From an uncultured Actinomycetota bacterium (GTDB lineage: Bacteria; Actinomycetota; Thermoleophilia; RBG-16-64-13), in NCBI GenBank assembly GCA_963736705.1, contig CAVTPV010000001.1, positions 485,232-549,231 on the forward strand: a DNA stretch of 64,000 bases, in the 5' to 3' direction. The notes below the pieces were generated by a model. That model had not been told where the DNA came from. It searched no databases and saw only the letters and a program-made list of their open reading frames with translations. Below, in pieces: positions 34,697 through 53,839 of the stretch (its first letter is position 1; every line of letters begins with the position of its first letter). A program made the translations under genes and the position numbers.

Positions 34697-37623
34697 TTAC
34701 CTGCCGACCTTCACCGTCTGGGAGGCGGTGTCACCGTTGGCGTCGTCACCAAGGATGGCTTCGTTGGTGATCTTGGTGCCCACCGGCGTGCCGTGGTTGA
34801 CCTTCACCGTGAACACGAGAGTCTTGATGGCGTGCGCCGGTAGAGTGCCCTTCCACTCGATGCTCTTGGTGGAAGCGTTGTAGTACATGCCCTTGACGAA
34901 CGTGGTCCCCGCGGGGATGGCATCGGTGAGCGTGTATGGCTGCGCCGCAGGGCTTATGTTCTTGACCGTCAGCACGTAGGTGATGGTCTTGCCGGAGAAG
35001 AACTTGGCTTGGGTGGCCATCATGCCCAGGTCGCCGAGCTGCTTGGCGTTCCAGAACGCGATGGTGCCCCAGCTGCCGTCCCTGGCTTTGTCGAGCACGG
35101 CCAGGTTGATGCCGTACTGGACGCCGTCGTCGCGCGGATCGCCGGTGCCGAGGATGGTGTCACCGAGATCGAATCCAAAGAAGTCGGGGATGAGGTTCTT
35201 GTCGCCGTCGGTGATCTTGGTGCTGTACGCGCCCTTGGTCAGGCATGGCGGCGCTGGCGAACGCATCCCAGAAGTAGAGACCCTCGTCGGCCGGCCGGTA
35301 CCGCAGACCCGGATAGTAGCCGAGCGAATCGTGGAACTGCGAGACTCCCGGCTGCGACGCGAACGTCTTGGTCTCGAGCACGTCCCCGGTCGCCGTATCG
35401 GCGCGGCGGATGGTGAACGATTTCGTCGGCTGCAGCGTGAACGTGGCGTTGCCCGGTTGCGCCCTCGAGTTGAGGCGCAGGTGAGCGTCGGTGGTGCCCA
35501 TGCCCTCCCACTCGAGCGGCCAGTAGTGGCTGTCCACCACGAGCAACGCGTGTTTGGGACCGTAGCTGGGCGGATCGATCAGAGCCCGCGTCGTAGAGCG
35601 TGTAGTCGAAGTCGTAGGCGCCGTTGCGGATCCACAGAAGCATGCCGGGCACCGTGTACGGAGCGCGGTCGACTTCCCACTCGGTGGTGGCTTCGTTGTT
35701 GTAGACCGTCACGTAGGGATACTTGAGGCCGCGGTCGAAGCCGCTGTTGTTGCGCCACTCGGCCAGGTAGTACACGGGATGGCTCTTCGTGAGAGGCACT
35801 ATGACGAAGTTGTTGGTGGTCCAGCCGTTCGGCGTGGTCTCGACGTCATCGGCGAAGAGGGTGGTAGCGCCATCGGCGAGCAAGAAGTCGTCTGCCTGCC
35901 AACCGGCCCATTGGACACCCACGTCGCTGACGTAGTGCAGCCGTAAGCTGATCTGCTTGCCCGCATAAGCGGCCAGGTCGAAGCGCAGAGTGCTCGTGCT
36001 CTCCCCGGTGAGGCCGATGCCGCCCATGCCGTCATCCACGAAGAGGCCGTCCATGTCGGGCAGCTGGGTCCAGTTGGTCCCGCCGTCCTCGCTGACCTCT
36101 ACGTAGCCGTAGTCGTATTCCTCCTCGAAGCTCCAGAAGCTGGCGAACGAGAAGATCGGGGCAGTGGCGGCCGTCAGATCGAAGTCGTGCGCCAGATAGA
36201 AGTCGGCAAGGTCACTGCGTTGAGACCAGTAGGCGTTGCCGGTGCCCGCTTTGTTGTCGACGGTGACGACCGTGTCGGGCAGGTTGATCTTGAGGCCCTG
36301 CTGGGTGCCCCTGGGCCGCAGCGAGAGCTGCCCGACCCTCAGGGTGGTCGCCTTGGAGTTGTAGTTCACCTCGACCGGCTTGGCCCAGCCCACGATGTAG
36401 CGGAAGTACAGCGAGAACGGAGCGGGCTGCATGCCGCCGAGGACGCCGTTCCAGGAGCCGGCTTCCATGATGGTCCAGTTGGACGGGGAAGCCTGAGCAT
36501 CCGTGGTGTAGATGTCCGGGAGACCGAACGCGGCGTGGCCGTATTCTTCGGAGATGACGCCCACATCGAGGTTCTCAGGATCCATGCTGTATTCACGGAC
36601 GTAGATATCCCGGACGCCGTTGTCGGCCGCGGATGATGCGAGGTAGCCCGCGGGATAGTCGATAGCAGAGGCGTGCGACCAGATGGAGTCCGCACCCTGC
36701 TGGCCTCCGCCCGCCTCCTGGCCCATGCCGGCATGGATGACGGTGAAGTTGTCGACGATGCCGTCGCCGTCGCCGTCGTACTGCACCCAGTCGAAGTCCG
36801 GGTCGTCGGCGTTGACGGCGTCCACGACCTCCCTGACCAGATCACCGGCGCGGGGACTGTTGTTCGTGTCGCTCTTGTCGTGGCCGTAATAGGCTTCGGA
36901 ATGCTCAGCCATCAGCCACTTGGGATAGACGGCGCCGTGCGGCTGGAACTTGCCTTCGGACTGTTCCAGATAGTAGTTGGCCATCGTGTTGCCGCGCAGG
37001 TCGACCGTTCCGAGGTTGGGATGGTCGACCACGACCCCAGCGGTGGGGCCGACGCCGAAGTACAGCTCTTCGTAGAGGCTCGGGGAGCTGTCGTCATACC
37101 AGATGGTGTTGTTGTCCCGCGGACCGGGCGCCGGGATCGTGTTGTGCAACGGGCCCGCGCCGGTGATGTCGGCACCCCCGTCGATCGGGTAACCCGGGAA
37201 GGTCTCTTCCGCGGCTGGGAACTCCACCGCCACGGCAAGGCTCATGAACTGCGACGTGGTCACCTGCACCGGGCTGCCCGCTTGCTCGTTGTGAAGGATC
37301 TTCTCGAGCTTGTGCGGGTTCGGAGTGGTGGGGTTGCGTTTCGCCCACTCCTGCCGGAAGGCCTGGATGGCCTGCGCCTTGAGGTTCCCCTTCATGGGGA
37401 TCTTGAAGTCGGCCAGGATGTCCTCGACGGCGTCGTCCTTGGGAACGACCAGATGCTGCGCGAACTTCCCTTCACTGAACATGGGAAGCGCCTTGACCTG
37501 GGCGGTCACATCGGCGGCGTCGGGACCGGATGCCAGCGCCACCGAGGTGATGGCCACAGCCACCACAATGACGGCGATCAGCGCCCCGGCGATCCACCAA
37601 AAACGAGGTCTCCGTCCACGCAT
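34697..37623 (-). pseudogene. M6-family (immune inhibitor A-like) secreted metalloprotease, 2 frame breaks (near 35585 and 35250)
   Basis: N-terminal anchor RFWWIAGALIAVIVVAVAI. M6 core ...ISEEYGHAAFGLPDIY in ORF 35239..37623. C-terminal parts in ORFs 35160..35546 and 34697..35266. Confidence 0.8.
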
Positions 37624-37919
37624 AATGCCACCCCTTCCAGATCACGGACCCCAGAACGCCGCTTTTCCCCTCGGGGCGAGCACTGCATACCCCTATGCAG
37701 GCTCCCAGAAAGCCCACAGTAGAAAAAAGCTTCCGCATTGTCAATGCGCTTTCGACCGGGCGGTCAAGGCAGCTGCGTGGGCTGCGCCGGAAGGTAGCGA
37801 CAGGCGAGGACGAAGCCCTCCGGGCTTGATAGGTGAGTAATATGCTTTGCGGATCATTTCAGTGGGCAACTGGGTATCTAGAGTCTCTGGAGGCCGCGGA
37901 GGGATCTTCGGAGGAATAG

Positions 37920-39155
37920 ATGAAGCGGTTACTGGTGATCGGTGCGGGCACGGCGGGCACGATGGTGGTGAACCGCCTGCGGCGGATCCTCGACGTCGAT
38001 GAATGGAAGATCACCATCGTCGACCCGGCTGGAGACCCACTACTACCAACCGGGCTTCCTGTTCATCCCCTTCGGCATGTACAGCAAGAACGACGTCGTC
38101 AAGCCCAAGCGGGACTTCATCCCGGCCGGCGTCGACGTCATCAAGGCCGCGGCCGACGTCATCGAGCCGGACAAGAACCAGGTGAAGCTGGTGGATGGCG
38201 ACGATCCTCCACTACGACGTCCTGGTGGTGGCCACCGGCACCGACATCCACCCGGAGGAGACCCCCGGTCTGCAGGGGCCCGAGTGGCGCCGCTCCATCT
38301 TCGACTTCTACAGCATCGACGGCGCTCAGGCGCTGGCCAAGCACCTGCGCACCTGGCAGGGCGGCCGGCTGGTGTTGAACGTGGTGGAGAACCCCATCAA
38401 GTGCCCGGTCGCGCCCCTCGAGTTCATCATGCTGGCCGACTGGTTCTTCCACGAGCAGGGCATCCGCGACCGGGTCGAACTGATCTACGCCACCCCGCTG
38501 CCCGGCGCGTTCACCAAGCCGATCGCCTCCAAGTATCTGGGCGACATCCTGGAGGGCAAGGGCGTCAAGGTGGTGCCGGAGTTCCTGGTGGAGCACGTGG
38601 ACCCGGAAGCCAAGAAGATCGTCCACTACGACGAGACCGAGTTGGAGTACGACCTCCTGGTGACGGTGCCGCTCAACAAGGGCGACGACCTCCTGGCCCG
38701 GTCGGGCATGGGGGACGAGCTCAACTACGTCCCCGTCGACAAGCACAGCTTCCTGTCGCCCGACCACCCGAACGTGTTCGTGCTCGGTGACGCAGCGTCG
38801 CTGCCCACGTCCAAGAGCGGTTCGGGCGCCCACTTCGCGGTCGACTGTTTCGCCGCCGAACTTCCTCCGCTACCTCGACGGGCTCGATACCAACCCGCCC
38901 TACGACGGCCACACCAACTGCTTCATCGAGTCGGGGTTCGGCAAGGGGCTGCTGATCGACTTCAACTACGACGTGGAGCCGCTGCCCGGCCGCTACCCGC
39001 TGCCCGGCATCGGCCCGTTCGCGTTGCTTCAGGAATCGGAGATGAACCACTGGGGCAAGATGATGTTCCGCTGGATGTACTGGAACATCCTGTTGAAGGG
39101 CAAGGAACTACCATTGCCGGCGCTCATGAGCATGTCCGGCAAGTACAGGAAGTAG
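37920..39155 (+). pseudogene. sulfide:quinone-oxidoreductase-like FAD-dependent oxidoreductase, 3 frame breaks
   Basis: MKRLLVIGAGTAGT (ORF 37920), ETHYYQPGFLFIPFG (ORF 37999), ENPIKCPVAPLEF...VFVLGDAAS (ORF 38195), and the C-terminus in ORF 38787..39155. Confidence 0.75.
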
Positions 39156-39165
39156 GGGTGGCGTG

Positions 39166-39899
39166 ATGGAAGAGCGTCCCATCTCCGCGGCGCCCGCCGC
39201 GCCCGGCCCGGCGGCGGAGCCCGCCGCGGCAGTGCCCCCGGCCACGGACCTCGCCGCTCTCGATCAGAAGCTCGACGTCCTCTCGGTGCAGGTGAACTAC
39301 CTCATCGAACAGGCGCAGGAGACGGCCCGCCGTCAGCGGGAGCGCTCGGAGCTGCTGCACGACGCCCTGCCCATCGCCAACGACGCCCTCGGCTTGGTGA
39401 CCGAGCAGTTGGACGAGATCCAGGGATACATCGACCTCTCCGACATCCTCCGCCTCCTCAAGCGGCTGCTCCGGAACGGCCGCAACATCGACAGGATGCT
39501 CGATCAGCTCGAAGGCCTCATGGACCTGGCCTCGACGGCCGGCCCGCTGGCCAACGACGTCTTCGGAAGGATCACCGACCAGCTCGAGGTGGCCGAGCAA
39601 CGCGGCTACTTCGCCCTCGCCAAGGGTGGCGCCCGTGCGATCGACCGGGTGGCCGGCTCCCTGACGCCCGAGGACCTCGATTGCCTGGCCGACAACGCCG
39701 TGGTGGTGATCTCGGCCTTCCAGGGACTCTGCCAGCCGGTGGACGCCCCGTCGTTCCGAGGGCTGCTGCGCCAGATGCGCGATCCCGGACGTGCGCCGGG
39801 GCCTCGTCGATAGTGATGCGCATGCTGCGCGCCGTCGGCGCCGAAGCGGCCGCCAGACAACAGGCGAGCGCCGCGCCCGGCAGCGGCGCGACCGAATAG
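39166..39899 (+). pseudogene. DUF1641-domain protein, frame breaks near 39790-39810
   Basis: ORF 39163..39813 holds the coiled N-terminal part. A DUF1641-like tail, ...LLRQMRDP / DVRRGLV / IVMRMLRAVG, is spread over three frames; stop at 39899. Confidence 0.65.
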
Positions 39900-39937
39900 A
39901 GACGAACCAGGAATCCCCGACCAGGAGGAACGACCGA

Positions 39938-40258
39938 ATGGCTACCCGGGTCATCGCAGGCAAAGAAGTGCAGGTCAACGACGAAGGCTTCATGACCGAC
40001 GCCACCGAGTGGAACAAGGACATCGCGGTGGCCATCGCGGTGGAGGAGGGCATCCCGGAACTCACCGACGACCACTGGAAGGTGATCGACTGGGCCCGCG
40101 ACCAAGCCAAGAACGCGAACTGGAAGTCCCCGACGCTCCGCCAGATCACGACGGGCACCGGGGTCAACACCAAGCAGCTCTTCGCGCTGTTCCCGAAGGG
40201 GCCGGCCAAGAAGGTCGCCCGCGTGGCCGGACTGGGCAAACCCGAAGGTTGCGTGTAA
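39938..40258 (+). CDS. TusE/DsrC-family sulfur-relay protein (single C-terminal Cys)
   Basis: Met at 39938. The C-terminus ...VAGLGKPEGCV matches the DsrC/TusE PxGCV tail. Ala sits where DsrC carries its second Cys, 11 residues upstream of the terminal one. Confidence 0.8.
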   Translation: MATRVIAGKEVQVNDEGFMTDATEWNKDIAVAIAVEEGIPELTDDHWKVIDWARDQAKNANWKSPTLRQITTGTGVNTKQLFALFPKGPAKKVARVAGLGKPEGCV

Positions 40259-40269
40259 GGAGGCAGCAC

Positions 40270-40777
40270 ATGGCCGACGACGACCACCCGCCACATCGCG
40301 TTCATCTGTTCGAAGGGCGATCTGGACATGGCCTATCCCGCGCTGGTCATGGGCTGGGCCGCGCTCGGCAACGGCGTGGACGTGAGCATCTTCTTCACGT
40401 TCTGGGGCCTGGACATGATCACCAAGCACCGGATCGACAAGCTGCAGCTCGCCCCGGTGGCCAACACCAGCATGAAGATGAGCATGATGATGCCGTTACC
40501 GAAGAACTGGGGCATCCCCAACCTCATGGGCGTCCTCCCGGGCATGACCCGCTTCGCCACGTGGATGATGCGCAAGAAGATCAAGGAGGTCGGCGCCCCG
40601 CCGGTGCGCGAGTACCTGGAGATGATGCAGGACGGCGGCGCCAAGCTCTACGCCTGCAAGATGAGCTGCGACATGATGGGCCTCGGCAAGGGGGACTTCA
40701 TCGACGGGGTCATCGACGGCACCACGGCCGCCGACTTCATCGACATGACCGAGGGGGCGCAGATCGTCTTCATCTAG
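40270..40777 (+). pseudogene. DsrE/DsrF-like (DrsE_2-type) protein, frame break within the first 10 codons
   Basis: ATG 40270 (MADDDHP) runs in one frame. The conserved ...HIAFICSKGDLDMAYPALVMGWAALGNGVDVSIFFTFWGL... runs in the +1 frame (ORF 40328..40777 lacks this strand). Confidence 0.7.
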
Positions 40778-40886
40778 GAGTGGGGACGGCGCCACGCCTG
40801 GCGCGGATTGAGGATTCTCGTGAGGGCCGGAGCACGCCGCTTCGGCCCTCTTGGTTTGCCGGCCCGAGATCCTGTTGCCCCAAGTA

Positions 40887-40916
40887 TTGACAGGTGACGC
40901 TATCTACGTATATCAT
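40887..40916 (+). promoter_or_regulatory. sigma70-like promoter with imperfect palindrome (ArsR operator candidate)
   Basis: TTGACA (40887-40892), then a 16-nt spacer and TATATC, or an 18-nt spacer and TATCAT. The dyad TATCTAC|GTATATA (40901-40914) overlaps the -10. Confidence 0.5.
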
Positions 40917-40958
40917 CAACTCTGCAAATACGGGATTGCAGGAGTGGCCTCGGTGGAT

Positions 40959-41468
40959 ATGCGCCCTCTCTTCAAGTTGCACGCTTCGGTCTGCCAAGCT
41001 CTTTCGAGCGAGCACCGCTTGGCCATCATGTACGGCCTCAAGGAAGGCGAGCGCCGGGTGAGCGACATCGCCGACGACCTGGGCATCTCCGTGCACAACG
41101 TCTCCCAGCACCTGCGCATCCTGCGGCAGGCTCTTCTGGTCAAGCCTCGCAAAGAGGGCCAGACGGTCTACTACTCCATCGCCAATCCCAAGTTCATGGA
41201 AGCCTGCGCCCTCATGCGCCAGGCCCTGCTCGAAGAGCACCAGGCCGAGGGTACGGCGCTCCACGCCGCCGCCGGGAGTGTTCGACCCCGTGGCGGCCAT
41301 GTCCACCATGTACGAGAACGGCATCGACGCGGATCACGATTCCGCGGGCAAACCGGCAACGACCCCCGAATCAGGCGCAAACGCATAACGAGCGATCAAC
41401 CGAGCAACGTTCGGACGAAAGGAAGACGATCATGGACCTCTCCACACTCAAAGGCGACAAAGTCGTAG
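40959..41468 (+). CDS. ArsR/SmtB-family transcriptional regulator (3' tail uncertain)
   Basis: LSSEHRLAIMYGLKEGERRVSDIADDLGISVHNVSQHLRILRQALLVKPRKEGQTVYYSI. The Arg-rich tail after about residue 110 overlaps the tusA start and may be out of frame. Confidence 0.7.
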   Translation: MRPLFKLHASVCQALSSEHRLAIMYGLKEGERRVSDIADDLGISVHNVSQHLRILRQALLVKPRKEGQTVYYSIANPKFMEACALMRQALLEEHQAEGTALHAAAGSVRPRGGHVHHVRERHRRGSRFRGQTGNDPRIRRKRITSDQPSNVRTKGRRSWTSPHSKATKS

Positions 41469-41677
41469 ACGCGCGCGGCACCTCCTGCCCCGGCCCCATC
41501 CTGGCCGCGAAGAAGGGCATGGCCGACGTCAAGGTCGGCGAGATCATGGAAGTGCTCGCCACCGACTCCGGCACCCAGAAGGACCTGCCCGCCTGGTCCA
41601 AGAAGCTGGGCCACGAGTACCTCGGTTTCGTCGAAGAGCCCGGCTACATGAAGCTCTTCGTCAAGAAGCTCAAGTAA
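41432..41677 (+). CDS. TusA-family sulfurtransferase
   Basis: 81 aa. VVDARGTSCPGPILAAKKGM carries the conserved CPxP active-site motif. Confidence 0.85.
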   Translation: MDLSTLKGDKVVDARGTSCPGPILAAKKGMADVKVGEIMEVLATDSGTQKDLPAWSKKLGHEYLGFVEEPGYMKLFVKKLK

Positions 41678-41701
41678 CGCACGGACGACCAAGGACCGGC
41701 C

Positions 41702-42153
41702 GTGACCGCAAGCGCGGGGTTCGCCCCCAAGATACTGGTCTTCTCGACCAACAACATCTCCGATCCGGGGATCGACCTGGCGGGTAGCTCGCATCTGCAC
41801 TACTCGCCGACCGTCATGGTCATCAGCATGCCCTGCACCAGCGGCATCCGGCCGGATTGGATCCTGTACGCCATCGAGCAGGGGTTCGATGGCGTCTTCA
41901 TCGCGTCGGACGGGGAGGAGTGCGCCTTCCTGCCCGACTGCGCGGAGCGGAGTTCGCACATCATGGCCAGCGCTCAGGAGATGCTGAAGGAGCGAGGGCC
42001 ACGAGCCCCGGCGGGTGAAGATGGCCGCCGTCTGCTCGGTGTGCGCCGACCCGTTCGTCAACTACATGGGCGAGTTCTCCAAGGCGCTCGCGGAGCTCGG
42101 GCCCTCCACCGACCGGGCCCGCGGCCGGACCGTCCGAGGAGCAGGCCGCATGA
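41702..42153 (+). pseudogene. MvhD-like (methyl-viologen-reducing hydrogenase delta-type) FeS protein, about 2 frame breaks
   Basis: KILVFSTNNISDPGIDLAG...VISMPCTSGIRPDWILYAIEQGFDGVFIASDGEECAF, then ..PRRVKMAAVCSVCADPF in another frame. One frame ends in a TGA overlapping the next ATG (ATGA at 42150-42153). Confidence 0.7.
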
Positions 42154-44916
42154 AGTACGACGCGCTGGTCATCGGCAGCGGCATCAGCGGCATGGAGTCC
42201 GCCCTCAAGCTCGGCGACATGGGCTACAAGGTGCTGGTGGTCGAGAAGGAGGCCAGCGTCGGCGGCAAGATGATCCTGCTGAGCAAGGTCTTCCCCACGC
42301 TCGACTGCGCCAGCTGCATCTCCACGCCCAAGATGGGCGCCACCATCCACCATCCCAACCTCGACGGTGCTCACCTACTCCGAGGTGGACAGCATCGAGC
42401 GCCAGAACGGCGAGCTTCAAGGCCAAGATCAAGCAGAAGGCCCGCTTCGTGGACGAGGAGGCCTGCACCGGCTGCCGGCAGTGCGAGATGGTCTGCAGCG
42501 TGGCCGTGCCCGACGAGTTCAACGCCGACCTGGTGTCGCGCCGGGCGGCCTACATCGCCTTCCCGCAGGCGGTGCCCAAGAAGGCCGTCATCGAGCGGCG
42601 AGGGCACCTCGCCCTGCACCTACACCTGCCCGGCGGGCATCAAGGCCCACGGGTACGTGGCGCTCACCCGCAGCGGCGAGTACGAGAAGGCCTTCCAGCT
42701 CGTGGCCGACGCCACCCCGTTGGTGGGCAGCCTGGGCCGGGCCTGCTACGCGCCCTGCGAAGAGGAGTGCACGCGGGGAGACCTCGAGGGCCCGGTGAAC
42801 ATCCGGCGCATCAAGCGCTTCCTGGCCGACACCCACTACGCCAAGCCGAGGGTGGCGCCCGAGAAGCCGGCGCCCAACGGCAAGAAGGTGGCCGTCGTCG
42901 GCTCGGGCCCGGCGGGCCTCACCGCCGCCTGGCACCTGGCCCGCAAGGGCTACGAGGTCAAGATCTTCGAGGCGGCGCCGCTGGCCGGCGGCATGCTCCG
43001 CCTGGCCCTGCCGCCCTACCGGCTGCCCAGCGAGGTGGTCGACGAGGACGTGGCCAACGTCACCGACCTCGGCGTGACGATCGTCACCGACACCAAGGTC
43101 GAGGACCTGGAGGCCCTCAAGGCCGAGGGCTACGACGCCGTGCTGGTCGCCATCGGCACCCATCTGGGCACCAAGCTGCGGGTCCCCGGCGAGGACCTGC
43201 AGGGTGTGACTGCGCGCCACCGAGTTCCTCCGGGCCGCCAAGCTCGGCGAGCCGCTCGAGGTGGAGGGCAAGCGCGTGGTGGTCATCGGCGGCGGCAACG
43301 TGGCCATCGACGCGGCCCGCACCGCGCTCCGCCTGAAGGCCGCTTCGGTGCGAGGTGCTCAGCCTGGAATCGCTGCAGCAGATGCCGGCCCACGCCTGCA
43401 GGAGATCGCAGGAGGCCAAGCCGGAGGGCGTCACCTTCCGCAACTCCTGCGGCGTGCGCAACTTCGAGGGCGACGGACAGCGTCCGGAGCATCGTGCCCG
43501 ATGCGCTGCGTGTCCGTGTTCGACGAGAAGGGCCGCTTCAGCCCCAAGTACTCCGACAAGACGCTCGGGCACCATCGAGTGCCGACCTGGTGATCGTGGC
43601 CGCCGGCATGCGGCCCGACTCGGGCGAGTTCGGCCTGCCGATCAACCCCTCCGGCACCATCAGGTCGACGCAGCGACACCCTGCAGACCGAGCATACCCT
43701 ACGTGTTCGCCGCGGGCGACGTGGTGCTGGGCCCGTCCATGATCACCACCGCGGCCGGCCACGGCCGCCGGGCGGCGTACTTCATGGACCGCTGGCTGCA
43801 GGGCCAGCCCATCGACGCGCTACGACCTCGACACCCCGCTCCCGATCGTGGACAAGGCCGACGTGCTCGGCCGGCAGATGACCTGCTACCGGGAGATCAC
43901 GCCCAAGCGGCCCGCGCGAGATCGTGCAGGCTGGCCCCGGGCGAGTTCTATCCCGACGAGGAGACCCTCACCGAAGACGAGGCCTCTGCCTGCACCGGCC
44001 GCTGCCTCGACTGCGGCGTCTGCTCGCGAGTGCCACGCGTGCGTGGACATCTGCCCGGCCGACTGCATCGACCTGAACATGAAGGGCGAGGAGATCGAGG
44101 TCGAGGTGGACGCGGTGGTCCTCGCCACCGGCTACACGCTCTTCCCGGCCGAGCTCAAGCCGCAGTACGGCTACGGCAAGTACAAGAACGTCATCACCGG
44201 CATGCAGATGGACCGCCTGCTGGCCCCCACCCGGCCGTACAACGCGCGTGGTGCGCCCGGGCGACGGCAAGGTGCCCGACAACATCGCCTTCATCCTCTG
44301 CACCGGCTCCCGCGACGAGACCCTCGGCAACCCGCTCTGCTCGCGCATCTGCTGCATGTACTCCGTCAAGCACAACCAGCTGATCATGGGCGCGCTGCCG
44401 CTGGCCGACGTCACCGTCTACTACATGGACATCCGCACGCCGGGCAAGGGCTACGACGAGTTCTACGAGCAGGCCAAGGCCATGGGCGCCAACTTCGTGA
44501 AGGGCCGCGTGGCCGAGCGTCACCGAGAAGGAGGACGGCAACCTGGTCCTCACGCTACGAGGACATCGAGAACGGCACCCTCACCGAGGCGGAGCACGAC
44601 CTGGTGGTGCTCGCGGTGGGCGTGCGGCCCAACGACGAAGCGCGCCCACGCTGTTCGCCGACGGCGAGCTGGCGCTGGACGACTACGCCTACGTGGGCGA
44701 AGCCGACGAGGACATGAACCCCGGCGCCACCAACATCCCCGGCGTGTTCGTGGCCGGCGTCGGCCTCGGGCGTCAAGGACATCCCCGATTCGATCCTTCA
44801 CGCGGGCGCCGCGGCGGCGCAGGCGGCCGCTCACCTGGAGAGCAAGCGGACGGCCGGCCGAGACGGCGGCCGACGCCGGCGACCGAGCCGCGACGTCGCG
44901 GAGGTGGCGCCGATGA
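42150..44916 (+). pseudogene. large HdrA-like flavoprotein interrupted by a GltD/NfnB-like NAD(P)H module (HdrL-like), many frame breaks
   Basis: Read across frames: KYDALVIGSGISG, CASCISTPKM, CTGCRQCEMVC. Then the GltD-like block: CPAGIKAHGYV, KKVAVVGSGPAGLTAAWHLARKGYEV, VVVIGGGNVAIDAAR, VFAAGDVV. Then CTGRCLDCGVCSECHACVDICP. Then the HdrA C-part: FILCTGSRD, CSRICCMYSVK, GVFVAGV..KDIPDSI. Confidence 0.7.
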
Positions 44917-46733
44917 GCACCGAGACCGGCAAGCGGCGCATCGGCGTCTACGTCTGCCATTGCGGCGGCAACATCTCCGACTACGTCGACGTGGACAAGG
45001 TGGTCGCGGCGCTGGAGGGCGACCCGGACGTGGTGGTGGCCAAGACGGCCATGTTCACCTGCTCCGACGCCACCCAGCAGGAGATCATCGAGGACATCCA
45101 GGAGCAGGGCCTCGACGGCATCGTCGTGGCCTCCTGCTCGCCCAAGCTGCACACCTTCACCTTCCGCGAGGTGGCCAAGCGGGCGGGGCTCAGCCCCTTC
45201 CAGTACACCCAGGTGAACGTCCGCGAGCAGTGCTCCTGGACCCACACCGACGACCACGAAGGCGCCACCGACAAGGCCACCAAGCTGGTCAAGGCCGGCA
45301 TCGGCCGCACCCGGCTGACGGTGCCGCTGGAGCCGATCGTCGTGGAGACGGTGCCCAAGGCGGTCGTCATCGGCGGCGGCATCACCGGTCTGCGGGCGGC
45401 CCTCGGGCTGGCCGAGATCGGCCTCGCGCGTGTTCCTGGTGGAGAAGGAGGCGCAGCTCGGCGGCTGGGCCGCCGGGTTCGGCGAGATGTACCCGTACGG
45501 CAAGAACGGCCGGGAGCTGGTGGCCGAGCTGATCGAGAAGGTGCGCGGCAACCCGGACATCACGGTGTTCACGAACGCCGAGGTCACCGGCAAGGCCGGC
45601 AGCTTCGGCAACTACGAGGTGGCCATCCGGGTGAACGGCGGCGCCGGCGAAGCCGCGGCCGAGCGCCGAGACCATCACCGTGCGAGGCGGGCTCCATCAT
45701 CGTGGCCACCGGCTTCGACGCCTACCCGGTGGCCGAGGACGAGTTCGGCTACGGCCTGGACGGCGTGGTCACGCTGCCCGAGTTCAAGCAGCTGGTGGAC
45801 GGCGCCGAGCGGCCCGCTCGCAGTACGACGGCAAGCCGGTCAAGAACATCGTCTACATCTACTGCGTGGGCAGCCGGCAGGACGCGGACGAGGTGGACGA
45901 CGCCCACGAGTACTGCTCCCGCTACTGCTGCACGGCCGCGGTGCACGCCTCCCTCGCAGGTGGCGGCCAAGCCCGGGCAAGCGTCCACCAGTACCACCTG
46001 CACCGCGACATCCGCACCTACGGCAAGTACGAGATGCTGTACGACGAGTCGCTCAACAAGGGCTCCGTCTACCTCAAGGTGCCCGACGACGAGCCGCCGG
46101 TGGTGACGCGCGACGACGAAGACCGGCCGCCTGCTGGTGACCACCCGCGACCTTCTGAGCCGAGGGCGAGGAGATCGAGATCCTGGCCGACCTGGTGGTG
46201 CTGGTCACCGGCATGGTGCCGCGCGAGAACGACGACCTGATCAAGACCCTCAAGCTGCCCGTGGGCAAGGGCGGCTTCTTCAACGAGATCCATCCCAAGC
46301 TGCGCCCGGTGGAGACCGTGGTCGACGGCGTCTACATCTGCGGCACCTGCCAGCAGCCGAAGAACTCGGCCGAGGCGGTCGCCTCCGGCCTGGCGGCGGT
46401 CACGCAGAGCGCCTCCATCCTCAAGCGCGGCTTCGCCGAGCTCGACCCGCTGGTCGCCATGGTCGACACGGACCTCTGCACCTGGTGCGGCACTGTGCCT
46501 GGAGGCCTGCCCCTACGACGCGCCCCGGCAGGTGGAGGAGGACGGCAAGAAGGTCGCGCTTCATCGACAAGACCGCCTGCAAAGGCTGCGGCGGCTGCGT
46601 GCCCGGTCTGCCCGGTCAAGACGCCATCGACCTCGAGGGCTACACCGACGCCCAGATCCGGGCCATGATCGACGGCCTGCTGTCGGAGCCGGCGAATGCC
46701 CGGATGCGTGACCGCAGGAGGTGCTCGGCATGA
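44913..46733 (+). pseudogene. hdrA: HdrA-like heterodisulfide-reductase subunit A flavoprotein, about 8 frame breaks
   Basis: ATG 44913 after GGAGGTG. IGVYVCHCGGNISDY, AVVIGGGITG, YIYCVGSRQ, CSRYCC, GVYICGTCQQPK, and a C-terminal CKGCGGCVPVCP-like ferredoxin motif. The stop overlaps the next ATG (ATGA at 46730-46733). Confidence 0.75.
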
Positions 46734-47028
46734 GCACGCCTGAATACTGCGCCGGCAGCCGGCGCGAGCGACGCCGGAAGCCCCGGCACCGCGATCCGTC
46801 CGCGAGATCATCCGCGACGAGCAGATCATGCGGGCGCCGCATCCTCAAGCTGCTCGACGACGGCGCCTCTGACCATCCCCGAGATCGCCGAGGCCTCGGG
46901 CGTCCCGACGTCACGAGGTGACCTTCTGGGTCATGGGCATGCGCAAGTACGGCTAGGTGCGCGAGGACAAAGAGGTCACCGACGAGGGCTACTTCCGGTA
47001 CCAGGCGATCGAGAGAGAGATCGGATGA
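46730..47028 (+). pseudogene. small winged-helix-like protein with frame breaks and an in-frame TAG
   Basis: ATG 46730 after GCAGGAGG. Pieces: ..ILKLLDDG.., ..IPEIAEASGVP.., ..EVTFWVMGMRKYG-TAG-VREDKEVTDEGYFRYQAIEREIG. The stop overlaps the next ATG (ATGA at 47025-47028). Confidence 0.4.
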
Positions 47029-48202
47029 CCACGCGACTTGAATCCCGAGCTCGTCGACGACCTCGGCGCCTGTACGGCGCCGAGGACGTGCAGAAGTGCT
47101 ACAACTGCGGCAACTGCACGGCCACCTGCTCGCTCGCCGACCAGCACGACAACTTCCCGCGCAAGTGCATGCACGCCCTGCAGATGGGCATGGAGAAGAA
47201 GCTCAAGGGCAGCCTGGAGCCCTGGCTCTGCTACTACTGCGGCGAGTGCTCCACGGACTGCCCGCGGGAGGCCTCAGCCGGGCGAGACCATGATGAGCCT
47301 GCGCCGCTGGTTGACCGTCGCGCTATGACTTCACCGGCATCGGCCGCCTGTTCTACCGGCGCCCGTGGATCGAGATCGCTCGTGGTGATCATCGTGGCCC
47401 TGCTCACCGGCGTCGGCTTCACCCTGTTCGGCGTGTTCGGCGGCGACATCCACCAGTACACCGGCGAGAACTCGTTCCTGCCGGCGGAGACCGTCCACAT
47501 CTTCGACTGGATCCTCGGCGGCGGTGCTGCTGGCCTTCCTCATCCCCAACATGATCCGCATGTGGTGGTTCACGCTCGGCCGGGACACCCTGGGCCGGGA
47601 CCGCACCAGGCAAGCTGCCGCGCATGCGCCTACCTCAAGTCCGTCTACCTGTTCCCGCTGCACTTCATGACCCAGAAGCGCTACGCGCAGTGCGAGCGCA
47701 AGCGGCCCTGGGTGATCCACCTGGCTCTGATGCTGAGCTACGTGACCATGCTCATGCTCATCATGTTCTTCCTCAAGTACATGTGGAACGGGCCCAAGAT
47801 CGACTGGCGCGTGCACGTGTTCGGCTACCTGGCCAGCGCCGGCCTGATCGCCGGCGACCACTCTGGGCGCATCGTCGGCCGCCTCAAGAAGATGGAGGCG
47901 CAGCTACAAGCACTCCCACGAGAGCGACTGGATGTTCCTGATCCTGCTGCTGGTGGTGGCGCTCACCGGGGTGCTGCAGCACGTGCTGCACCGCGCCGGC
48001 GCCGACGTGGCGGCCAACGTCTCCTACGTCGTGCACCTGATGGCGGTGGTCCCGATGCTGGGACTGGAGGTGCCCTTCAGCAAGTGGTCGCACATGGCCT
48101 ACCGGCCGCTGGCCATGTACTTCTCGGTGCTCCGCAAGCAGATCGTGCCGGTACCGGCCGAAGAAGAGGCGCCCGAGCGGCATGCAGACCGAAGCCGCCT
48201 GA
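47025..48202 (+). pseudogene. QmoC-like protein: HdrC-type di-cluster domain fused to an HdrE/NarI-type multi-TM domain, about 8 frame breaks; 3' end uncertain
   Basis: CYNCGNCTATC and CYYCGECSTDCP, then hydrophobic helices (LVVIIVALLTGVGFTLFGVF, VIHLALMLSYVTMLMLIMFFL, WMFLILLLVVALTGVL, VVHLMAVVPMLGL) spread over frames. Candidate stop at 48200-48202. Confidence 0.6.
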
Positions 48203-48240
48203 CCGACGACCCGACCCGAGATCGCGACAGAAGGAGTCCC

Positions 48241-48721
48241 ATGGCAGACACCCACCAAGAAGACCATCATCCTGTTCAGCGGCGACTTCGACAAAGTCAT
48301 GGCCGCCCTCATCATCGCCAACGGCGCTGCCGCGATGGGCGACGACGTCACCATCTTCTGCACCTTCTGGGGCCTCAACGCGCTCCGCAAGCCGCAGAAG
48401 GTCAAGGCGAAGAAGAAGTTCCTGCAGGGCATGTTCGGCATGATGATGCCGCGCGGCGTCAACAAGCTCGGCATGTCGAAGATGAACTTCGCCGGCATGG
48501 GCCCGCAGATGATGGGCATGGTCATGAAGGGCGAGGGCGCCATGACCCTGCAGCAGCTCCTCGACGCGGCCATCGAGCAGGGCGTCAAGCTGGTGGCCTG
48601 CACCATGACCATGGACCTGCTGGGCTTCAAGAAGGAAGAGCTGCTGGACGGCGTCGAGTACGCCGGCGTGGCCGCCTATCTGGGCGAAGCCGACGAGGCG
48701 AACGTCAACCTGTTCATCTAG
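48241..48721 (+). pseudogene. DsrE/DsrF-like (DrsE_2-type) protein, paralog of 40270..40777, frame break within the first 6 codons
   Basis: AAGGAG then ATG 48241 (MADT..). The conserved KKTIILFSGDFDKVMAALIIANGAAAMGDDVTIFCTFWGL runs in the +1 frame. Removing one C from the CCC at 48251-48253 restores the frame. Confidence 0.7.
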
Positions 48722-48743
48722 CCTCAGCAGACTCCGACGAAAA

Positions 48744-48772
48744 GGGCGCCGCAAGGCGCCCCTTCTGTTTCT
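48744..48772 (+). terminator. rho-independent terminator
   Basis: GGGCGCC-GCAA-GGCGCCC followed by CTTCTGTTTCTC. Confidence 0.6.
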
Positions 48773-48921
48773 CGCCGGCGTCACGTGTTCTAAGAGATTT
48801 CTCATGCGCCCCTCATCCTGGCCTCACGACCCCGCTCTATGCTCGGCGCATACCCCGTTGGGTATGGACCCGCCCTTCCTTTGTGGGCGAGCGGCCGAAA
48901 GAGCGACCAAGGAGAGCGGGC

Positions 48922-50572
48922 ATGGGAGTCAGCACGGGTACGACGAGCGCTGCGGGAACAGCAGGCCGGACCAGGAAGCGCAAGCCGAGGCGCACCATTC
49001 ACTGGCTGCGTCTGGGCGTGCAGATCGTGGTGGCGGTCTTCGTGCTCCTCCTGAGCATCGGGCACACCCTGGCCTGGAGCTGGTCCGCCAACCTGCACAG
49101 CATCTGCCCGTTCGGCGGCGTCGCCAACCTGTACACGTACTTCTCCACCGGGGGCTACGTGGCCAAGCTCCATTCGGCTGTGTTCGTGATGCTCCTCGCC
49201 CTGGTGATCGGCCTGGTGCTCACCGGGAAGTCGTTCTGCGGGTGGATCTGCCCGCTGGGGACTGTCCAGGAACTGCTGGGCAAGGCCGGGCAGGCGGCTC
49301 TGGCCGCGGCTGTACAACCGGGTGCCCCACAAGGTGGAGCGCGTCCTTTTCTACGGCAAGTACGTGATGCTCATCTGGATCATCGTGCAGACGGCCCGCT
49401 CCGCCCGACTGTTCTTCGAGTCTTTCGATCCGTACTACAACCTGTTCACCATCTGGTCGGACGAGGTGGCGTGGATCGGCTACTTGGTGGTGGGAGCCAC
49501 GCTGTTCGCCGCCCTCTTCATCGAGCGGCCCTTCTCGCGCTATGCCTGCCCGCTCGGCGCGGTCAACGGGTTCTTCAACTCCTTCTCGCTCTTCCAGATC
49601 AAACGCGACGCCGCCAGTTGCACCGACTGCGGCCGCTGCGACAAGGTCTGCCCGGTGAAGATCGACGTCTCGCATGCAACCGCGGTCCGGAGCATCGAAT
49701 GCACCCGGTGCCTCGAATGTGTCGAGGCCTGTCCGGTGAACACCCGGACCGGCAACACCCTCAAACTGAAGACCATCTTCCCCTGGACCCGCATGGGCCG
49801 TAAGCCCCTGCCCACGCGCGTGTTCGCGGTCATCGCCATCCTCGCGTTCGCTGCGCCGATCGCGATCACCATCGGCACCGGGGACTTCGTGGTCACCAAC
49901 ACCCACGTCTATTCCAGTCCGGCGGACATCAAGGGTTCGTCCCCGCTCGATGATCTCGTGGACAACTTCTCGGTGTCCAAGGAGGCGCTCTACAACGGCA
50001 TAGGTATCCCGTCGTCGGTGGGCGCGGCCACCCAGATCAAGGACCTGGCCGCCAAGATGGGGCTCCCGGAGGGCGAAGAGACGGTGTCGCCCTCCACGAT
50101 CCGGATCATCATCACCTACCTTGACTCCCCGCTGTCCACCTTCGTGACTGAGGGAGGGGCGGACCAAGCGGCGGTGTCGGCGGCGGCGGCCGCGGCCGGG
50201 CTCACAGAGTCATCCACCGTCCGCCAACTCATGGAGTTGGGGGCCCCGGGAGCGGTGCTTCTGGCGCTGACGACGACTTCGGCGGAGGCGCCCGGGGCGA
50301 CGGAAAGCACGGCGCCGGCGAGCGCGGAGCCGGCGCCGGCGACGCCCACCTCGGAGACGCCCGCCGCGTCTGAGACGGGAGACGGCACTGCCGAGATCAA
50401 GGGCTCGACGACCCTCGACCAGGTAAGAGGCATGGTGTCCGACTTCCCGGCCTTCCTGTCCGAGTTCGGCATCGATCCTTCGGAGCCCGGTACCGCCGCG
50501 ATGAAGGATCTCAAGACCACGTACGGGTTCGAGTTGGACAGCGTTCGCACCTACATCGCGGACCATCAGTGA
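48922..50572 (+). pseudogene. NapH/MauN-like membrane polyferredoxin with a long C-terminal extension, frame break near 49290
   Basis: AAGGAGAG then ATG 48922. SFCGWICPLGTVQE, RYACPLGAV, CTDCGRCDKVCP, CTRCLECVEACP. The C-terminal extension has two IKGS-type about-45-aa repeats separated by an Ala/Thr/Pro linker. Confidence 0.65.
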
Positions 50573-50651
50573 TCGGTCACGACTGAGGCTATACTCGATG
50601 ACGGGACGGCGGCCTACGGCCGACCGTCCCGTATCAGGCTTGGAGGTGGAG

Positions 50652-51098
50652 ATGAAGCGATTCGGCCGATGGACGGTACCCCTGACGGGTGTGGGCGTTG
50701 TCGCCCTCGTCGCCCTTGCCGCCTTCCTCATCCTCGACTTGAGCAGCCGCTCGGTGGACCCGTCGTCACTCCCGGTCATCCAACTGGGGCAGACGGGAAC
50801 AAGCCAATCAGGCCAGAACACGCCCGGGTCTGGAACCGCGGGTCAGGGCCCCGGGCCGGGCCAGTCCACCGGCGACCCGGGCACGTCCACCACCGTGGCG
50901 CCGGGACCGGGCGTCACCTCGGTGACGGCGGCGGGCGCTACCTCAACGACCACGACGCCAGGAGGGTCCACCACCACGGGCAGTACCGTCCGCGAGACCA
51001 TCAACGGGGGCGTGCATACTGGGACCACCGGCGGCACGAGTTCCAGCGGGACGACCGGGACTTCGACAGGATCGACAGGATCGACCGGAGGACGGTGA
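50652..51098 (+). CDS. membrane-anchored low-complexity (Gly/Thr/Ser/Pro-rich) protein
   Basis: MKRFGRWTVPLTGVGVVALVALAAFLILDL anchor, then a disordered G/T/S-rich tail. The stop lies 4 nt before the response-regulator ATG. Confidence 0.45.
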   Translation: MKRFGRWTVPLTGVGVVALVALAAFLILDLSSRSVDPSSLPVIQLGQTGTSQSGQNTPGSGTAGQGPGPGQSTGDPGTSTTVAPGPGVTSVTAAGATSTTTTPGGSTTTGSTVRETINGGVHTGTTGGTSSSGTTGTSTGSTGSTGGR

Positions 51099-51102
51099 TG
51101 GC

Positions 51103-51777
51103 ATGCGGGTGCTGGTAGTCGAAGACGAAGAGAGAGTGGCCTCCTTCATCGCGAAGGGGCTCGAGGGCGCCGGCTACGCGACCGAGGTGGCGAGCAGTGG
51201 CGCCGAAGCCCTGGATTCGTTCCGGGAGCGGGGCGCCGATCTGGTCCTCCTGGACGTCGGCCTTCCCGATATCGACGGGTTCTCCGTACTCAAAGAACTG
51301 CGCAAGGTCGACCAGGAGACCCCGGTGATCATGCTGACCGCGCGGGGAGACGTGGCTTCCCGGGTGCAGGGACTCGACCTGGGCGCTGACGACTACCTGC
51401 CCAAACCGTTCGACTTCGACGAGTTGGTGGCCCGCATCCGGGCTCAGCTCCGTCACAGCGGGCAGCCGCAGGCGTCCGTGCTGCAGGCCGGCGATCTTCA
51501 GCTGGACCTCAAGACCCGGCGCGCCCAGCGCGGCGAACGCGGCACCGACCTCACCTCTCGCGAATTCGCCTTCCTGGAGTTCCTCCTGCGGCACGAAGGC
51601 CAGGTGCTGTCCCGCTCTCAGATCCTCGGCAGCGTCTGGGGATACGGGTTCGATCCGCAGAGCAACGTGGTGGACGTCTACGTGGGCTACCTGCGCGGCA
51701 AGCTTGACCGGCCCGGAGAGACGACCATCATCGAGACCGTCCGGGGAGGCGGCTATCGCCTCCGGGTACCCGCTTGA
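51103..51777 (+). CDS. OmpR-family response regulator
   Basis: Receiver domain (VLVVEDEE...DLVLLDVGLPDIDG...MLTARG) plus a winged-helix output domain (LTSREFAFLEFLLRHEGQVLSR...VDVYVGYLRGKL). Confidence 0.9.
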   Translation: MRVLVVEDEERVASFIAKGLEGAGYATEVASSGAEALDSFRERGADLVLLDVGLPDIDGFSVLKELRKVDQETPVIMLTARGDVASRVQGLDLGADDYLPKPFDFDELVARIRAQLRHSGQPQASVLQAGDLQLDLKTRRAQRGERGTDLTSREFAFLEFLLRHEGQVLSRSQILGSVWGYGFDPQSNVVDVYVGYLRGKLDRPGETTIIETVRGGGYRLRVPA

Positions 51778-53150: not shown

Positions 53151-53302
53151 GCCCCGGCGCGGCGGCCCGCCGCGCTCTCCTGGACACTCTAAGGGCTTTC
53201 TCATCCGCCGTTAATGATGGCCTCATCGGCACGCCCGATAGTAGTAAGTGTCGGGCAAGACCGACAAGCCATGCACAAGGAATGTGATGCAAGGAGGCAG
53301 TA

Positions 53303-53749
53303 ATGCTTAAACGGAAATGGGTGATCATCCTCGCGGTGGTCGTCCTCTTCACACTGGTCGTAGCTGGCACGGCTCTGGCCGGCGCCGGCCCGCAGTCGAG
53401 GACCAACAGCACCGTCGTGCCGAGCAGTTCCACGACAGGCGTACCGAGCACCGCGACCACGTGCTCCCCCAGCACCACCTGCACGCCGAGCACCCTGAGA
53501 GGAGCCGCGGTGGCGCCGGCGGCAGCCACCAGCACCGCCAGCACGCTCCGCACTCAGACCCAGCTGCAGGACGAGACCTGCGACGGCACCTGCACGCCGA
53601 GCACCCTGCGGACGCAGACCCAGTTGCAGGACGAGACCTGCGATGGCACCTGCGATCCGACGAGCGCCACGGCACAGGACCAGTCCAGGGATCATTCTGG
53701 CGTCCGCGATGGTAGCGGTGACGGCAACAACTACGCCCACGGCAACTGA
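53303..53749 (+). CDS. secreted Thr/Ser/Cys-rich repeat protein
   Basis: AAGGAGG then ATG 53303. Signal peptide ...VVAGTALAGA. Repeated STLRTQTQLQDETCDGTC units; Asp/Gly-rich tail. Confidence 0.6.
   Translation: MLKRKWVIILAVVVLFTLVVAGTALAGAGPQSRTNSTVVPSSSTTGVPSTATTCSPSTTCTPSTLRGAAVAPAAATSTASTLRTQTQLQDETCDGTCTPSTLRTQTQLQDETCDGTCDPTSATAQDQSRDHSGVRDGSGDGNNYAHGN
53541..53660 (+). repeat. tandem 60-nt coding repeat (2 full units; an 18-nt partial copy at 53480-53497)
   Basis: Units 53541-53600 and 53601-53660 differ at about 9 positions. TGCACGCCGAGCACCCTG is exact at 53480 and 53591. Confidence 0.85.
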
Positions 53750-53802
53750 GGGGAAGCTGTTTCCGGCACCCGGGAACGGTAGTCCGATCCTGAGATGAGT
53801 CC

Positions 53803-53839
53803 GGGGCGCATGCCCCCCGATCCGGGGGGCATGCGCCCC
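53803..53839. terminator. perfect 16-bp hairpin between convergent genes
   Basis: GGGGCGCATGCCCCCC-GATCC-GGGGGGCATGCGCCCC. The T-tract is weak (GTTCCCC). Confidence 0.55.

Follow-up and report, generated by a model that had tools for sequence, protein, structure and literature searches.

In the QmoABC complex, QmoA is a short, FAD-only flavoprotein and QmoB carries a fused MvhD-like domain. A 'type II' Qmo group that is closer to HdrA has been found in organisms with or without Apr/Dsr, and its function was left open (Neukirchen et al., PMC10504309). The sHdr system is accompanied by TusA and DsrE, and the function of DsrE2-family carriers is unclear even in the systems that have been studied (PMC11094781). 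Here, we analyzed 13 plus-strand genes that bring modules of this kind together in an uncultured Actinomycetota bacterium (Thermoleophilia, RBG-16-64-13; assembly GCA_963736705.1). They occupy positions 37,920 to 50,572 of a 64,000-nucleotide stretch of contig CAVTPV010000001.1 (positions 485,232 to 549,231), referred to below as the window. Our best overall explanation, to which we assign a probability of roughly 0.45, is an intact gene set in three units that would encode an HdrA-type bifurcating, Qmo-like complex linked to sulfur carriers.

Gene order and conservation of the cluster

A first-pass annotation, made from the sequence alone, had described the 13 genes as one colinear set. After frame correction, each gene was found within a few bases of the start it had given and in the same order, and all its gene identities were upheld by profile hidden Markov models from Pfam and NCBIfam. 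The close spacing it described, mostly below 40 nt or with ATGA overlaps, holds in general but is broken by two gaps of 175 nt (40778-40952) and 200 nt (48722-48921). The first gap holds a 12-bp hairpin and a promoter-like site, and the second holds a hairpin. Based on these terminator-like hairpins, the promoter-like site and the two long gaps, the single set most likely resolves into three transcription units. Unit 1 (37920-40777) contains genes for a type III sulfide:quinone oxidoreductase (SQR), a DUF1641 protein, a TusE-like protein and a DsrE2-family carrier. Unit 2 (40953-48721) follows in the order ArsR, TusA, MvhD, HdrL, HdrA2, a small protein, a QmoC-like protein and a second DsrE2, while unit 3 (48922-50572) consists of a NapH-like gene alone.

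The conservation of the cluster was assessed by a scan with an HdrL alignment across GTDB, each species being represented by one genome, and at least 80 loci were listed. These loci were annotated by tblastn with the proteins of L003, an intact orthologous contig of 15.9 kb that was reached via the closest HdrL homologs, and leftover open reading frames (ORFs) were clustered. In 79 of the 80 listed loci the core reads TusA-MvhD-HdrL-HdrA-small protein followed by either a QmoC-like protein or HdrC plus HdrB, together with DsrE-family genes, and TusA lies directly upstream of MvhD in the same proportion (79/80). ArsR and one or more DsrE-family genes accompany the core in nearly all listed loci. 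The recurrence of this order in about 80 independent genomes places the arrangement far beyond chance, and the core cluster is almost certainly a genuine conserved functional unit. The first-pass annotation had proposed a check of gene-order conservation, and unit 2 indeed proved colinear across about 80 listed species genomes. The widely conserved part is, however, unit 2 only (ArsR to DsrE2). Unit 1 adjoins it only in the nearest relatives, and lies nearby in another position or orientation in L055, L067 and L076. On the contigs of the two closest HdrL homologs (P0001 and P0003), the gene order is identical and all genes are intact; the flanks also correspond to those of the window, with peptidase M6, MFS and EamA genes upstream and a two-component system downstream.

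The terminal gene of the core is QmoC-like in about 45 listed loci. In about 28 others, its place is taken by a 103-aa HdrC-like dicluster protein and a single-CCG HdrB-like protein of about 340 aa (among them L005, L008, L010, L012-L016, L019, L020, L022, L024, L035, L036, L044, L050, L056, L057, L065, L068, L071, L074, L078 and L083). The terminal module is swapped even between close relatives, as in L004 (QmoC type) and L005 (HdrCB type). The absence of hdrB and rhodanese genes reported by the first-pass annotation thus describes the cluster of this lineage but not the system, given these HdrB-like proteins and the rhodanese genes found near other loci. Recurrent neighbors elsewhere include PadR, hemerythrin, secreted rhodanese and CoADR-rhodanese genes. 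In the Chloroflexota loci L025, L028, L030 and L081, the core is followed directly downstream by a second set of sulfur-carrier genes in divergent orientation, which encodes ArsR, TusA, DrsE_2, rhodanese, an S-adenosylmethionine-methyltransferase-like protein and an ICMT-like membrane protein.

The hosts span at least seven phyla. They include Actinomycetota (Thermoleophilia, Gaiellales, Acidimicrobiia, Propionicimonas, Phycicoccus, Cellulomonadaceae), Bacillota (Desulfofundulus thermobenzoicus DSM 14055, Desulfocucumis, Symbiobacterium), Chloroflexota, Gemmatimonadota, Acidobacteriota and Dormibacterota, as well as metagenome-assembled genomes (MAGs) labeled as delta-proteobacteria and one Thermoplasmata MAG. 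In a metagenome scan, assemblies from wetland, peat, sediment and bioreactors contributed over 500 additional relatives.

Subunits of the predicted complex

The protein features outlined here suggest, at about even odds, that unit 2 encodes an Hdr/Qmo-type complex that is linked to sulfur carriers and coupled to NAD(P)H and quinone. Both of its carriers retain their active-site cysteine throughout, with Cys19 of the TusA CPGP motif invariant in 79/79 loci and Cys120 of DsrE2 in 43/43, in line with their earlier designation as sulfur relay proteins. MvhD is a separate protein of 141 aa with five conserved cysteines.

The two large flavoproteins differ in architecture. In HdrL, the N- and C-terminal parts of HdrA flank a GltD/NfnB-like FAD/NAD(P)H module with two [4Fe-4S] clusters. 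In PDB searches, these outer parts (residues ~1-150 and 617-890) match methanogen HdrA at 2e-105, and residues 154-552 match NfnB, GltD and DPD subunit A. Intact HdrL homologs of about 900 aa form more than 120 clusters. HdrA2 comprises an N-terminal 4-Cys domain, an FAD domain and a C-terminal ferredoxin domain with two [4Fe-4S] clusters; its ortholog matches methanogen HdrA (5odc_A) at 9.5e-116 over residues 24-604, against 3e-29 for sHdrA (6tjr).

The N-terminus of the QmoC-like subunit matches HdrC in PDB searches. Eight cluster cysteines are conserved, and the four conserved histidines within hydrophobic, transmembrane (TM) segments are consistent with two b hemes. The ortholog of L003, which shares 80% identity with the frame-corrected protein of the window, aligns with positions 5-360 of the 360 positions of the qmoC model NF038018 (E 3e-60) and scores 204 bits, below the cut-off of 300. 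Together, the conserved cysteines, histidines and TM segments fit the quinone link that had been put forward in the first-pass annotation, and the HdrL insert fits the possible link to NAD(P)H.

The small protein between HdrA2 and the QmoC-like subunit is found in 76/80 listed loci and gives weak helix-turn-helix matches in PDB profile searches. Its identification as a DsrD-like winged helix was rejected as unsupported: an hhalign comparison of a 26-sequence profile with D. vulgaris DsrD gave a probability of 0.4%.

The regulator ArsR is intact in L001 and L003, with 144-147 aa. It matches SqrR (1.7e-8) and BigR (1.7e-4) in the PDB, with Rv0081 and CadC scoring better. Its two cysteines, candidate counterparts of the sensing cysteines of SqrR, BigR and sHdrR, are 71 residues apart, against a spacing of 66 residues in SqrR. 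A block around the -10 box (GTATAT...TGCAAATAC) overlaps the promoter-like site and shows conservation across L001, L003 and L004; it is a candidate ArsR operator.

Proposed mechanism and alternatives

The set of modules required for bifurcation is present, with an entry for NAD(P)H, two HdrA flavins, the MvhD adaptor, a ferredoxin-like exit and a high-potential exit. In the proposed mechanism, NAD(P)H would be oxidized at the HdrL insert. The high-potential branch would then lead from the HdrC-like clusters via the b hemes of the QmoC-like subunit to menaquinone, with soluble HdrC and single-CCG HdrB taking the place of the QmoC-like subunit in related lineages. The other branch would run from MvhD through the ferredoxin domain of HdrA2 to sulfur bound to TusA/DsrE2, either a persulfide or possibly a thiosulfonate, or to ferredoxin. 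The carriers are placed on this branch because a swap of the high-potential module leaves TusA and DsrE2 in place, and because TusA lies beside MvhD. In the lineage studied here, sulfane sulfur bound to carriers would come from the SQR unit and be sensed by the ArsR repressor; elsewhere, genes for SQR, rhodanese and CoADR-rhodanese are located near the cluster. The reductive direction, with the carriers on the low-potential branch, is a tentative assignment that we consider possible but doubtful.

Several points weigh against this scheme. The main weakness is that the QmoC-type variant lacks a CCG domain and thus has no subunit with a recognized sulfur-redox active site, which leaves the electron route to TusA/DsrE2-bound sulfur unexplained. 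Persulfide reduction, at about -270 mV, is also no classical low-potential acceptor reaction. Furthermore, units 1 and 2 each pair a flavoenzyme with carriers of their own, and the carriers could equally take up the product of sulfide oxidation.

Without a sulfur-active site in the QmoC variant, all needed redox modules would still be present for an NAD(P)H:menaquinone/ferredoxin bifurcating enzyme that is independent of sulfur and FixABCX-like in function, with TusA and DsrE2 serving cofactor thiolation, maturation or regulation. Such an enzyme would represent the thermodynamically simplest three-way coupling. We nevertheless consider it somewhat unlikely, given the near-universal position of TusA directly upstream of MvhD, the DsrE-family gene with its invariant active-site cysteine in nearly all listed loci, the SQR, rhodanese and CoADR-rhodanese genes that recur nearby, and ArsR-type regulators that resemble sulfane-sulfur sensors.

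The same modules might alternatively work in the oxidative direction, bifurcating electrons from sulfide or carrier thiols to menaquinone at high potential and to NAD(P)+ at low potential, with TusA/DsrE2 accepting sulfane sulfur. The potential of S0/H2S lies between those of menaquinone and NAD(P), and the pairing of each flavoenzyme with its own carriers would make unit 2 a parallel of the SQR unit. QmoABC is, moreover, oxidative in sulfur oxidizers (PMC13293266). The QmoC variant, however, has neither a cysteine-pair flavin site nor a CCG site at which sulfide could be oxidized. Characterized HdrABC-type enzymes, in addition, work reductively, and we regard the oxidative direction as unlikely.

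Finally, the cluster could simply be QmoABC or sHdr of the ordinary kind, with the genes for the customary partners (AprAB/Sat or HdrB/LbpA) located in another part of the genome. Two HdrA-like flavoproteins with a QmoC-like subunit, the full-length alignment to the qmoC model, the company of TusA and DsrE in sHdr (PMC11094781) and the reported 'type II Qmo' with or without Apr/Dsr (PMC10504309) would all agree with this. What makes it improbable is the QmoC-like score under the curated threshold, an architecture that differs from QmoA/QmoB, the weak match of HdrA2 to sHdrA, the lack of recurrent Apr, Sat, Dsr or LbpA-like families within 7 kb of the 80 listed loci, and hosts such as Propionicimonas, Phycicoccus and Cellulomonadaceae. 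To our knowledge, these three include no sulfate reducers.

If unit 2 indeed encodes a sulfur-carrier-dependent Hdr/Qmo-type complex, it would connect the quinone pool, NAD(P)H and protein-bound sulfur in a new way. A further-reaching interpretation, which we consider possible but doubtful, is that of an unrecognized energy-coupling enzyme, widespread in Actinomycetota, Chloroflexota and Bacillota of soil, peat and sediment: a flavin-based bifurcating NAD(P)H oxidoreductase in which electron flow to menaquinone or a disulfide, at high potential, would drive the thermodynamically difficult reduction of carrier-bound sulfur. A candidate reaction is the reductive cleavage of TusA/DsrE2 thiosulfonate, i.e., cytoplasmic thiosulfate or tetrathionate reduction, and the reverse reaction would be a sulfide-driven reduction of NAD(P)+. 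In either direction, Qmo-Apr and sHdr would be joined by a third sulfur pathway of the Hdr type. The hosts belong to abundant, mostly uncultured lineages from soil, peat and sediment, and Dsr/Apr marker genes are lacking near the cluster. This is relevant to 'cryptic' sulfur cycling, which surveys of marker genes would overlook. The swap between QmoC and HdrCB offers a natural experiment on the membrane attachment of Hdr-type complexes, and cultured carriers make the cluster testable, namely Propionicimonas sp. T2.31MG-18 (QmoC type, with an SQR module nearby) and Desulfofundulus thermobenzoicus DSM 14055 (HdrCB type).

Reading frames and origin of the frameshifts

The G+C content is about 66% across the window, and the segment at 42-46 kb reaches 70%. 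A plain ORF listing of 37.9-50.6 kb yields only fragments, whereas a GC3 frame plot and a codon-usage Viterbi decoder revealed plus-strand coding that is unbroken but hops between frames. The frames were stitched, and the products were scanned with Pfam, NCBIfam and PDB profile searches. Frameshifts were mapped by a custom frameshift-aware dynamic-programming alignment of the L003 proteins to the window DNA; plain tblastn is unsuited to this purpose, since high G+C lets high-scoring segment pairs continue out of frame. A total of 58 frameshifts were mapped in 37920-48718, comprising 48 insertions of one base, six of two bases and four deletions. A further shift lies where MvhD meets HdrL and another within the NapH-like gene, and the region carries about 60 in all. 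Only the TusE-like and TusA genes are intact ORFs (Table 1). The corrected proteins share 70-96% amino-acid identity with those of L003, and the sole in-frame stop, the TAG in the gene of the small protein, reads TGG in L003. Indels near the ATGA overlaps at 42150 and 44913 run MvhD into HdrL and HdrL into HdrA2 in the same frame, so that gene callers could report false MvhD-HdrL or HdrL-HdrA2 fusion proteins. Owing to the insertion errors, automatic annotation of the contig will fragment or miss the whole operon.

The frameshifts are very probably assembly or consensus artefacts rather than signs of decay. In the alignment of the window with contig L168 (87% nucleotide identity), 30 one-base gaps are due to an extra base in the window and a single one to an extra base in L168, and all four bases (A, C, G and T) occur among the insertions, mostly not as homopolymer extensions. 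At the sites near 41274 and 41996, the extra base is absent from L001 and L002, two independent short-read contigs of 96-97% identity in which ArsR and MvhD are intact. With the frameshift zones masked, HdrL of the window compares with the outgroup P0006 at 81.0%, and the intact proteins P0001, P0003 and P0004 do so at 81.5, 80.5 and 79.8%. This lack of excess amino-acid change gives no sign of relaxed selection, and codon bias is undiminished. The universally conserved YchF is hit as well, by three +1 shifts, and its stitched product aligns with PDB 8kie without a break across all three junctions.

The +1 shifts outside the operon comprise those three in YchF (1254-2351, minus strand), three in an ABC substrate-binding protein (7938-9365, minus), one or two in each of the FAD-linked oxidases and the CCG protein at 21318-25907 (minus), two in a peptidase M6 (34697-37593, minus), whose stitched product of 966 aa matches a 973-aa homolog on the P0001 contig, and one in a radical SAM gene (59623-60787, plus). 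The other long genes of the window are free of frameshifts, and the sequence quality of the contig is patchy. As a control for the flank, the peptidase of L003 was discarded, being 30% identical, non-orthologous and uninformative, and the MFS gene was used instead.

The very uneven density of the frameshifts counts against the artefact reading. They reach about one per 130 nt at 41.7-48.2 kb, and none occurs in the adjoining MFS gene, the regulator/kinase pair or the glycyl-radical enzyme gene. The segment 50533-53843 is 98.2-99.6% identical, without any 1-nt indel, to four short-read contigs (L164-L167, from JGI 3300003541, 3300003432, 3300047517 and Logan SRR407529). In addition, neither composition nor sequence motifs account for the clustering of insertions at 43-48 kb. 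A homopolymer cause was rejected, as the inserted bases are mostly outside homopolymers, and k-mers within ±6 nt gave an unconvincing enrichment (about two-fold for GCG/CGC only; CGCGC six times against 1.2 expected). Our working idea is that this hot zone may be a mixed-strain long-read consensus artefact. The operon is common to several co-occurring populations, e.g., in five MAGs of sample MFD04716, and in comparison with contigs from the same sample the operon part of the window is more divergent than its flank.

The sole differences between 50533-53843 and L164-L167 are a 21-nt in-frame repeat-copy at 50863, within a Thr/Gly/Ser-rich membrane protein, and 6 nt near 50322-50332. Judged by this sequence identity, the source population is also present in the samples of L164-L167, which would make these samples usable to correct the operon. 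No near-identical independent DNA was found for the hot region, where the best metagenome match has 82% amino-acid identity and the best DNA is L168 at 87%; a database look-up gave no record identical to the TusE-like protein.

True decay of the operon into a pseudogene cluster with about 60 indels could explain the contrast in density with the neighboring genes, the one in-frame TAG and the missing upstream ArsR of relatives, but is very improbable, as bacterial gene decay is deletion-biased (here, 30 extra bases oppose one), dozens of nonsense codons would be expected where one is seen, codon bias is fully kept, the relative-rate test of HdrL finds no excess substitution, YchF and further genes also carry +1 shifts, and contigs at 96-97% identity lack the extra base at both comparable sites.

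Unit 1, unit 3 and putative regulatory elements

The SQR ortholog of L003, 92% identical to that of the window, scores 616 bits on the 'type III SQR' model NF049943 (cut-off 525). Both catalytic cysteines are present (KCPVAP, TNCFIE) and align with the catalytic cysteines of human SQOR. The DUF1641 gene starts 8 nt after SQR and encodes the domain at its C-terminal end. DUF1641 proteins such as HucM, ForE and Ncp act as scaffolds for soluble dehydrogenases and channel menaquinone to these enzymes (PMC13524794, PMC8808070). By analogy, SQR and DUF1641 plausibly form a predicted quinone-conduit pair. As in Ncp-Ndh, HucM-Huc and ForE-ForC, DUF1641 is located directly 3' of a soluble quinone-reducing flavoenzyme of the NDH-2/SQR superfamily; in contrast to these, the partner belongs to the type III SQRs. 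This pairing is absent from the DUF1641 papers (PMC13524794, PMC8808070) and would extend the new quinone-conduit family to sulfide oxidation.

The DsrC-family protein fits only the TusE/DsrC subfamily model of NCBIfam, and its C-terminus (...GKPEGCV / ...KKVARVAGLGKPEGCV) has the penultimate cysteine alone. It is thus TusE-like and not a bona fide DsrC with two cysteines (CysA and CysB), which bears out and narrows the earlier TusE/DsrC-family call. The first DsrE2 copy scores 112 bits on the DsrE2 model NF047629, under the cut-off of 210. An additional ArsR gene that precedes SQR on the P0001 and L003 contigs is absent from 37624-37919, where no remnant was detected.

The NapH-like protein of unit 3 has a long Ala/Thr/Ser-rich C-terminal extension. 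Its gene was rejected as part of the system: it has no match in the 80 listed loci, occurs only on the contig of the closest relative and is lineage-specific.

Table 1. Genes and putative regulatory elements of the three units. Frameshift counts of units 1 and 2 refer to the alignment with L003.
Feature	Position	Strand	Basis	Frameshifts
Type III SQR-like flavoprotein	37920..39155	+	Pyr_redox_2	3 (+1 near 38028, 38200, 38855)
DUF1641 protein	39166..39899	+	PF07849 37.9 bits, cut-off 21	2 (near 39784, 39806)
TusE/DsrC-family protein, intact	39938..40258	+	PF04358 108 bits; TIGR03342 76.6 bits, cut-off 53.5	0
DsrE2-family (DrsE_2) carrier, copy 1	40270..40777	+	PF13686 125 bits	1 (near 40282)
Terminator-like hairpin, end of unit 1	40822..40850	+	sequence; 12 pairs, 9 GC	
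Promoter-like TTGACA-18-TATCAT	40887..40916, element to 40935	+	sequence	
ArsR-family regulator	40953..41388	+	PF01022; Cys C12, C83	1 (+1 near 41274)
TusA sulfur carrier, intact, CPGP motif	41432..41677	+	PF01206 76.5 bits	0
MvhD/FlpD-type [2Fe-2S] adaptor	41702..42153	+	PF02662 99.7 bits	1; shifts near 41996, 42113
HdrL-like protein, ~900 aa	42150..44916	+	HdrA interrupted by Fer4_20 + Pyr_redox_2	21
Full-length HdrA (HdrA2), ~600 aa	44913..46733	+		16
Small cysteine-free winged-helix-like protein, 92-97 aa	46730..47028	+		3, plus TAG at 46954
QmoC-like membrane subunit	47025..48202	+	HdrC-like 2x[4Fe-4S] domain + TM helices	9
DsrE2-family (DrsE_2) carrier, copy 2	48241..48721	+	PF13686 215 bits	1 (near 48253)
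Terminator-like GC hairpin, end of unit 2	48744..48761	+	sequence	
NapH-like membrane polyferredoxin, unit 3	48922..50572	+	PF12801 Fer4_5	near 49309

Other genes of the window

Beyond the sequence errors, the window itself contains nothing unusual. Its sole CCG protein (23076-24345, minus) is HdrD/GlcF-like, with two CCG domains and a dicluster domain. It sits between FAD-linked, GlcD-like oxidase genes (21318-23051 and 24410-25907) and looks like a component of a glycolate/lactate-oxidase-type system, a context that has nothing to do with the operon. The absence of hdrB given in the first-pass annotation is qualified by this CCG protein. A second flavoprotein of the SQR/NDH-2 superfamily, intact and with a Pyr_redox_2 domain, comprises 396 aa (60805-61995, minus). 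The region around it (54.3-63.2 kb) encodes MinD/ParA-type 4Fe-4S ATPases as well as Mrp/ApbC, NifU-like, NifX-like, DUF364 and OsmC-like proteins. A glycyl-radical enzyme (806 aa) with its activase (17836-21263, plus) and a 4-hydroxybutyryl-CoA dehydratase/HpaB-family protein (13981-15555, minus) suggest an anaerobic or facultative Actinomycetota host.

Comparison with described systems

Judged by the defining features that were tested, the cluster appears to lie outside canonical QmoABC, sHdr and methanogen Hdr-Mvh. No description of a TusA-MvhD-HdrL-HdrA-QmoC/HdrCB arrangement was found in full-text searches, whose coverage of subscription journals is low. Both results agree with the remark in the first-pass annotation that the combination could not be matched to a described system. 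Its statement that aprAB, sat and lbpA are missing from the window was also borne out.

The closest likeness is to QmoABC and QmoAB-HdrCB, with two HdrA-type flavoproteins beside an HdrC-like Fe-S and diheme cytochrome b membrane subunit. The alternation between membrane QmoC and soluble HdrC plus HdrB across lineages is likewise shared with QmoABC and the Gram-positive QmoAB-HdrCB. In contrast to QmoA/QmoB, MvhD is a protein of its own here, and the two flavoproteins are an HdrA with an NfnB-like insert and an HdrA of full length. The L003 ortholog of the QmoC-like protein falls under the qmoC cut-off, and TusA and DsrE2 are constant companions in the present cluster. Neither Apr nor Sat is encoded in the window, and no such family, nor any Dsr family, recurs within 7 kb of the 80 listed loci.

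With sHdr, the cluster shares an Hdr-type complex that is genetically coupled to TusA, DsrE2-family carriers and an ArsR-type regulator. It differs in having no HdrB1/B2 or HdrC1/C2 pair and no short sHdrA, with a quinone-linked membrane subunit instead. No CCG-type HdrB is encoded in the operon and no LbpA in the window, and the 80 listed loci contain no recurrent LbpA-like ORF family.

Full-length HdrA and MvhD are common to the cluster and methanogen HdrABC-MvhAGD. The two-CCG HdrB of HdrABC and the MvhAG hydrogenase are, however, absent from the operon context in the window and from the 80 listed loci, and NCBIfam HdrA models give 320-450 bits against cut-offs of 1100-1400. An HdrA interrupted by an NfnB/GltD module, the MvhD adaptor and the logic of flavin-based bifurcation connect the cluster with HdrL of Desulfobacterium autotrophicum-type sulfate reducers, Flox-Hdr and HdrABC-MvhAGD. 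In contrast to these systems, the cluster lacks hydrogenase and Flox genes, has a QmoC-like terminal module here and is consistently accompanied by sulfur-carrier genes.

The present cluster may overlap with the 'type II' Qmo group (PMC10504309). As a whole, it is assembled from familiar modules, in an arrangement and with partners that are apparently undescribed, and it is widespread.

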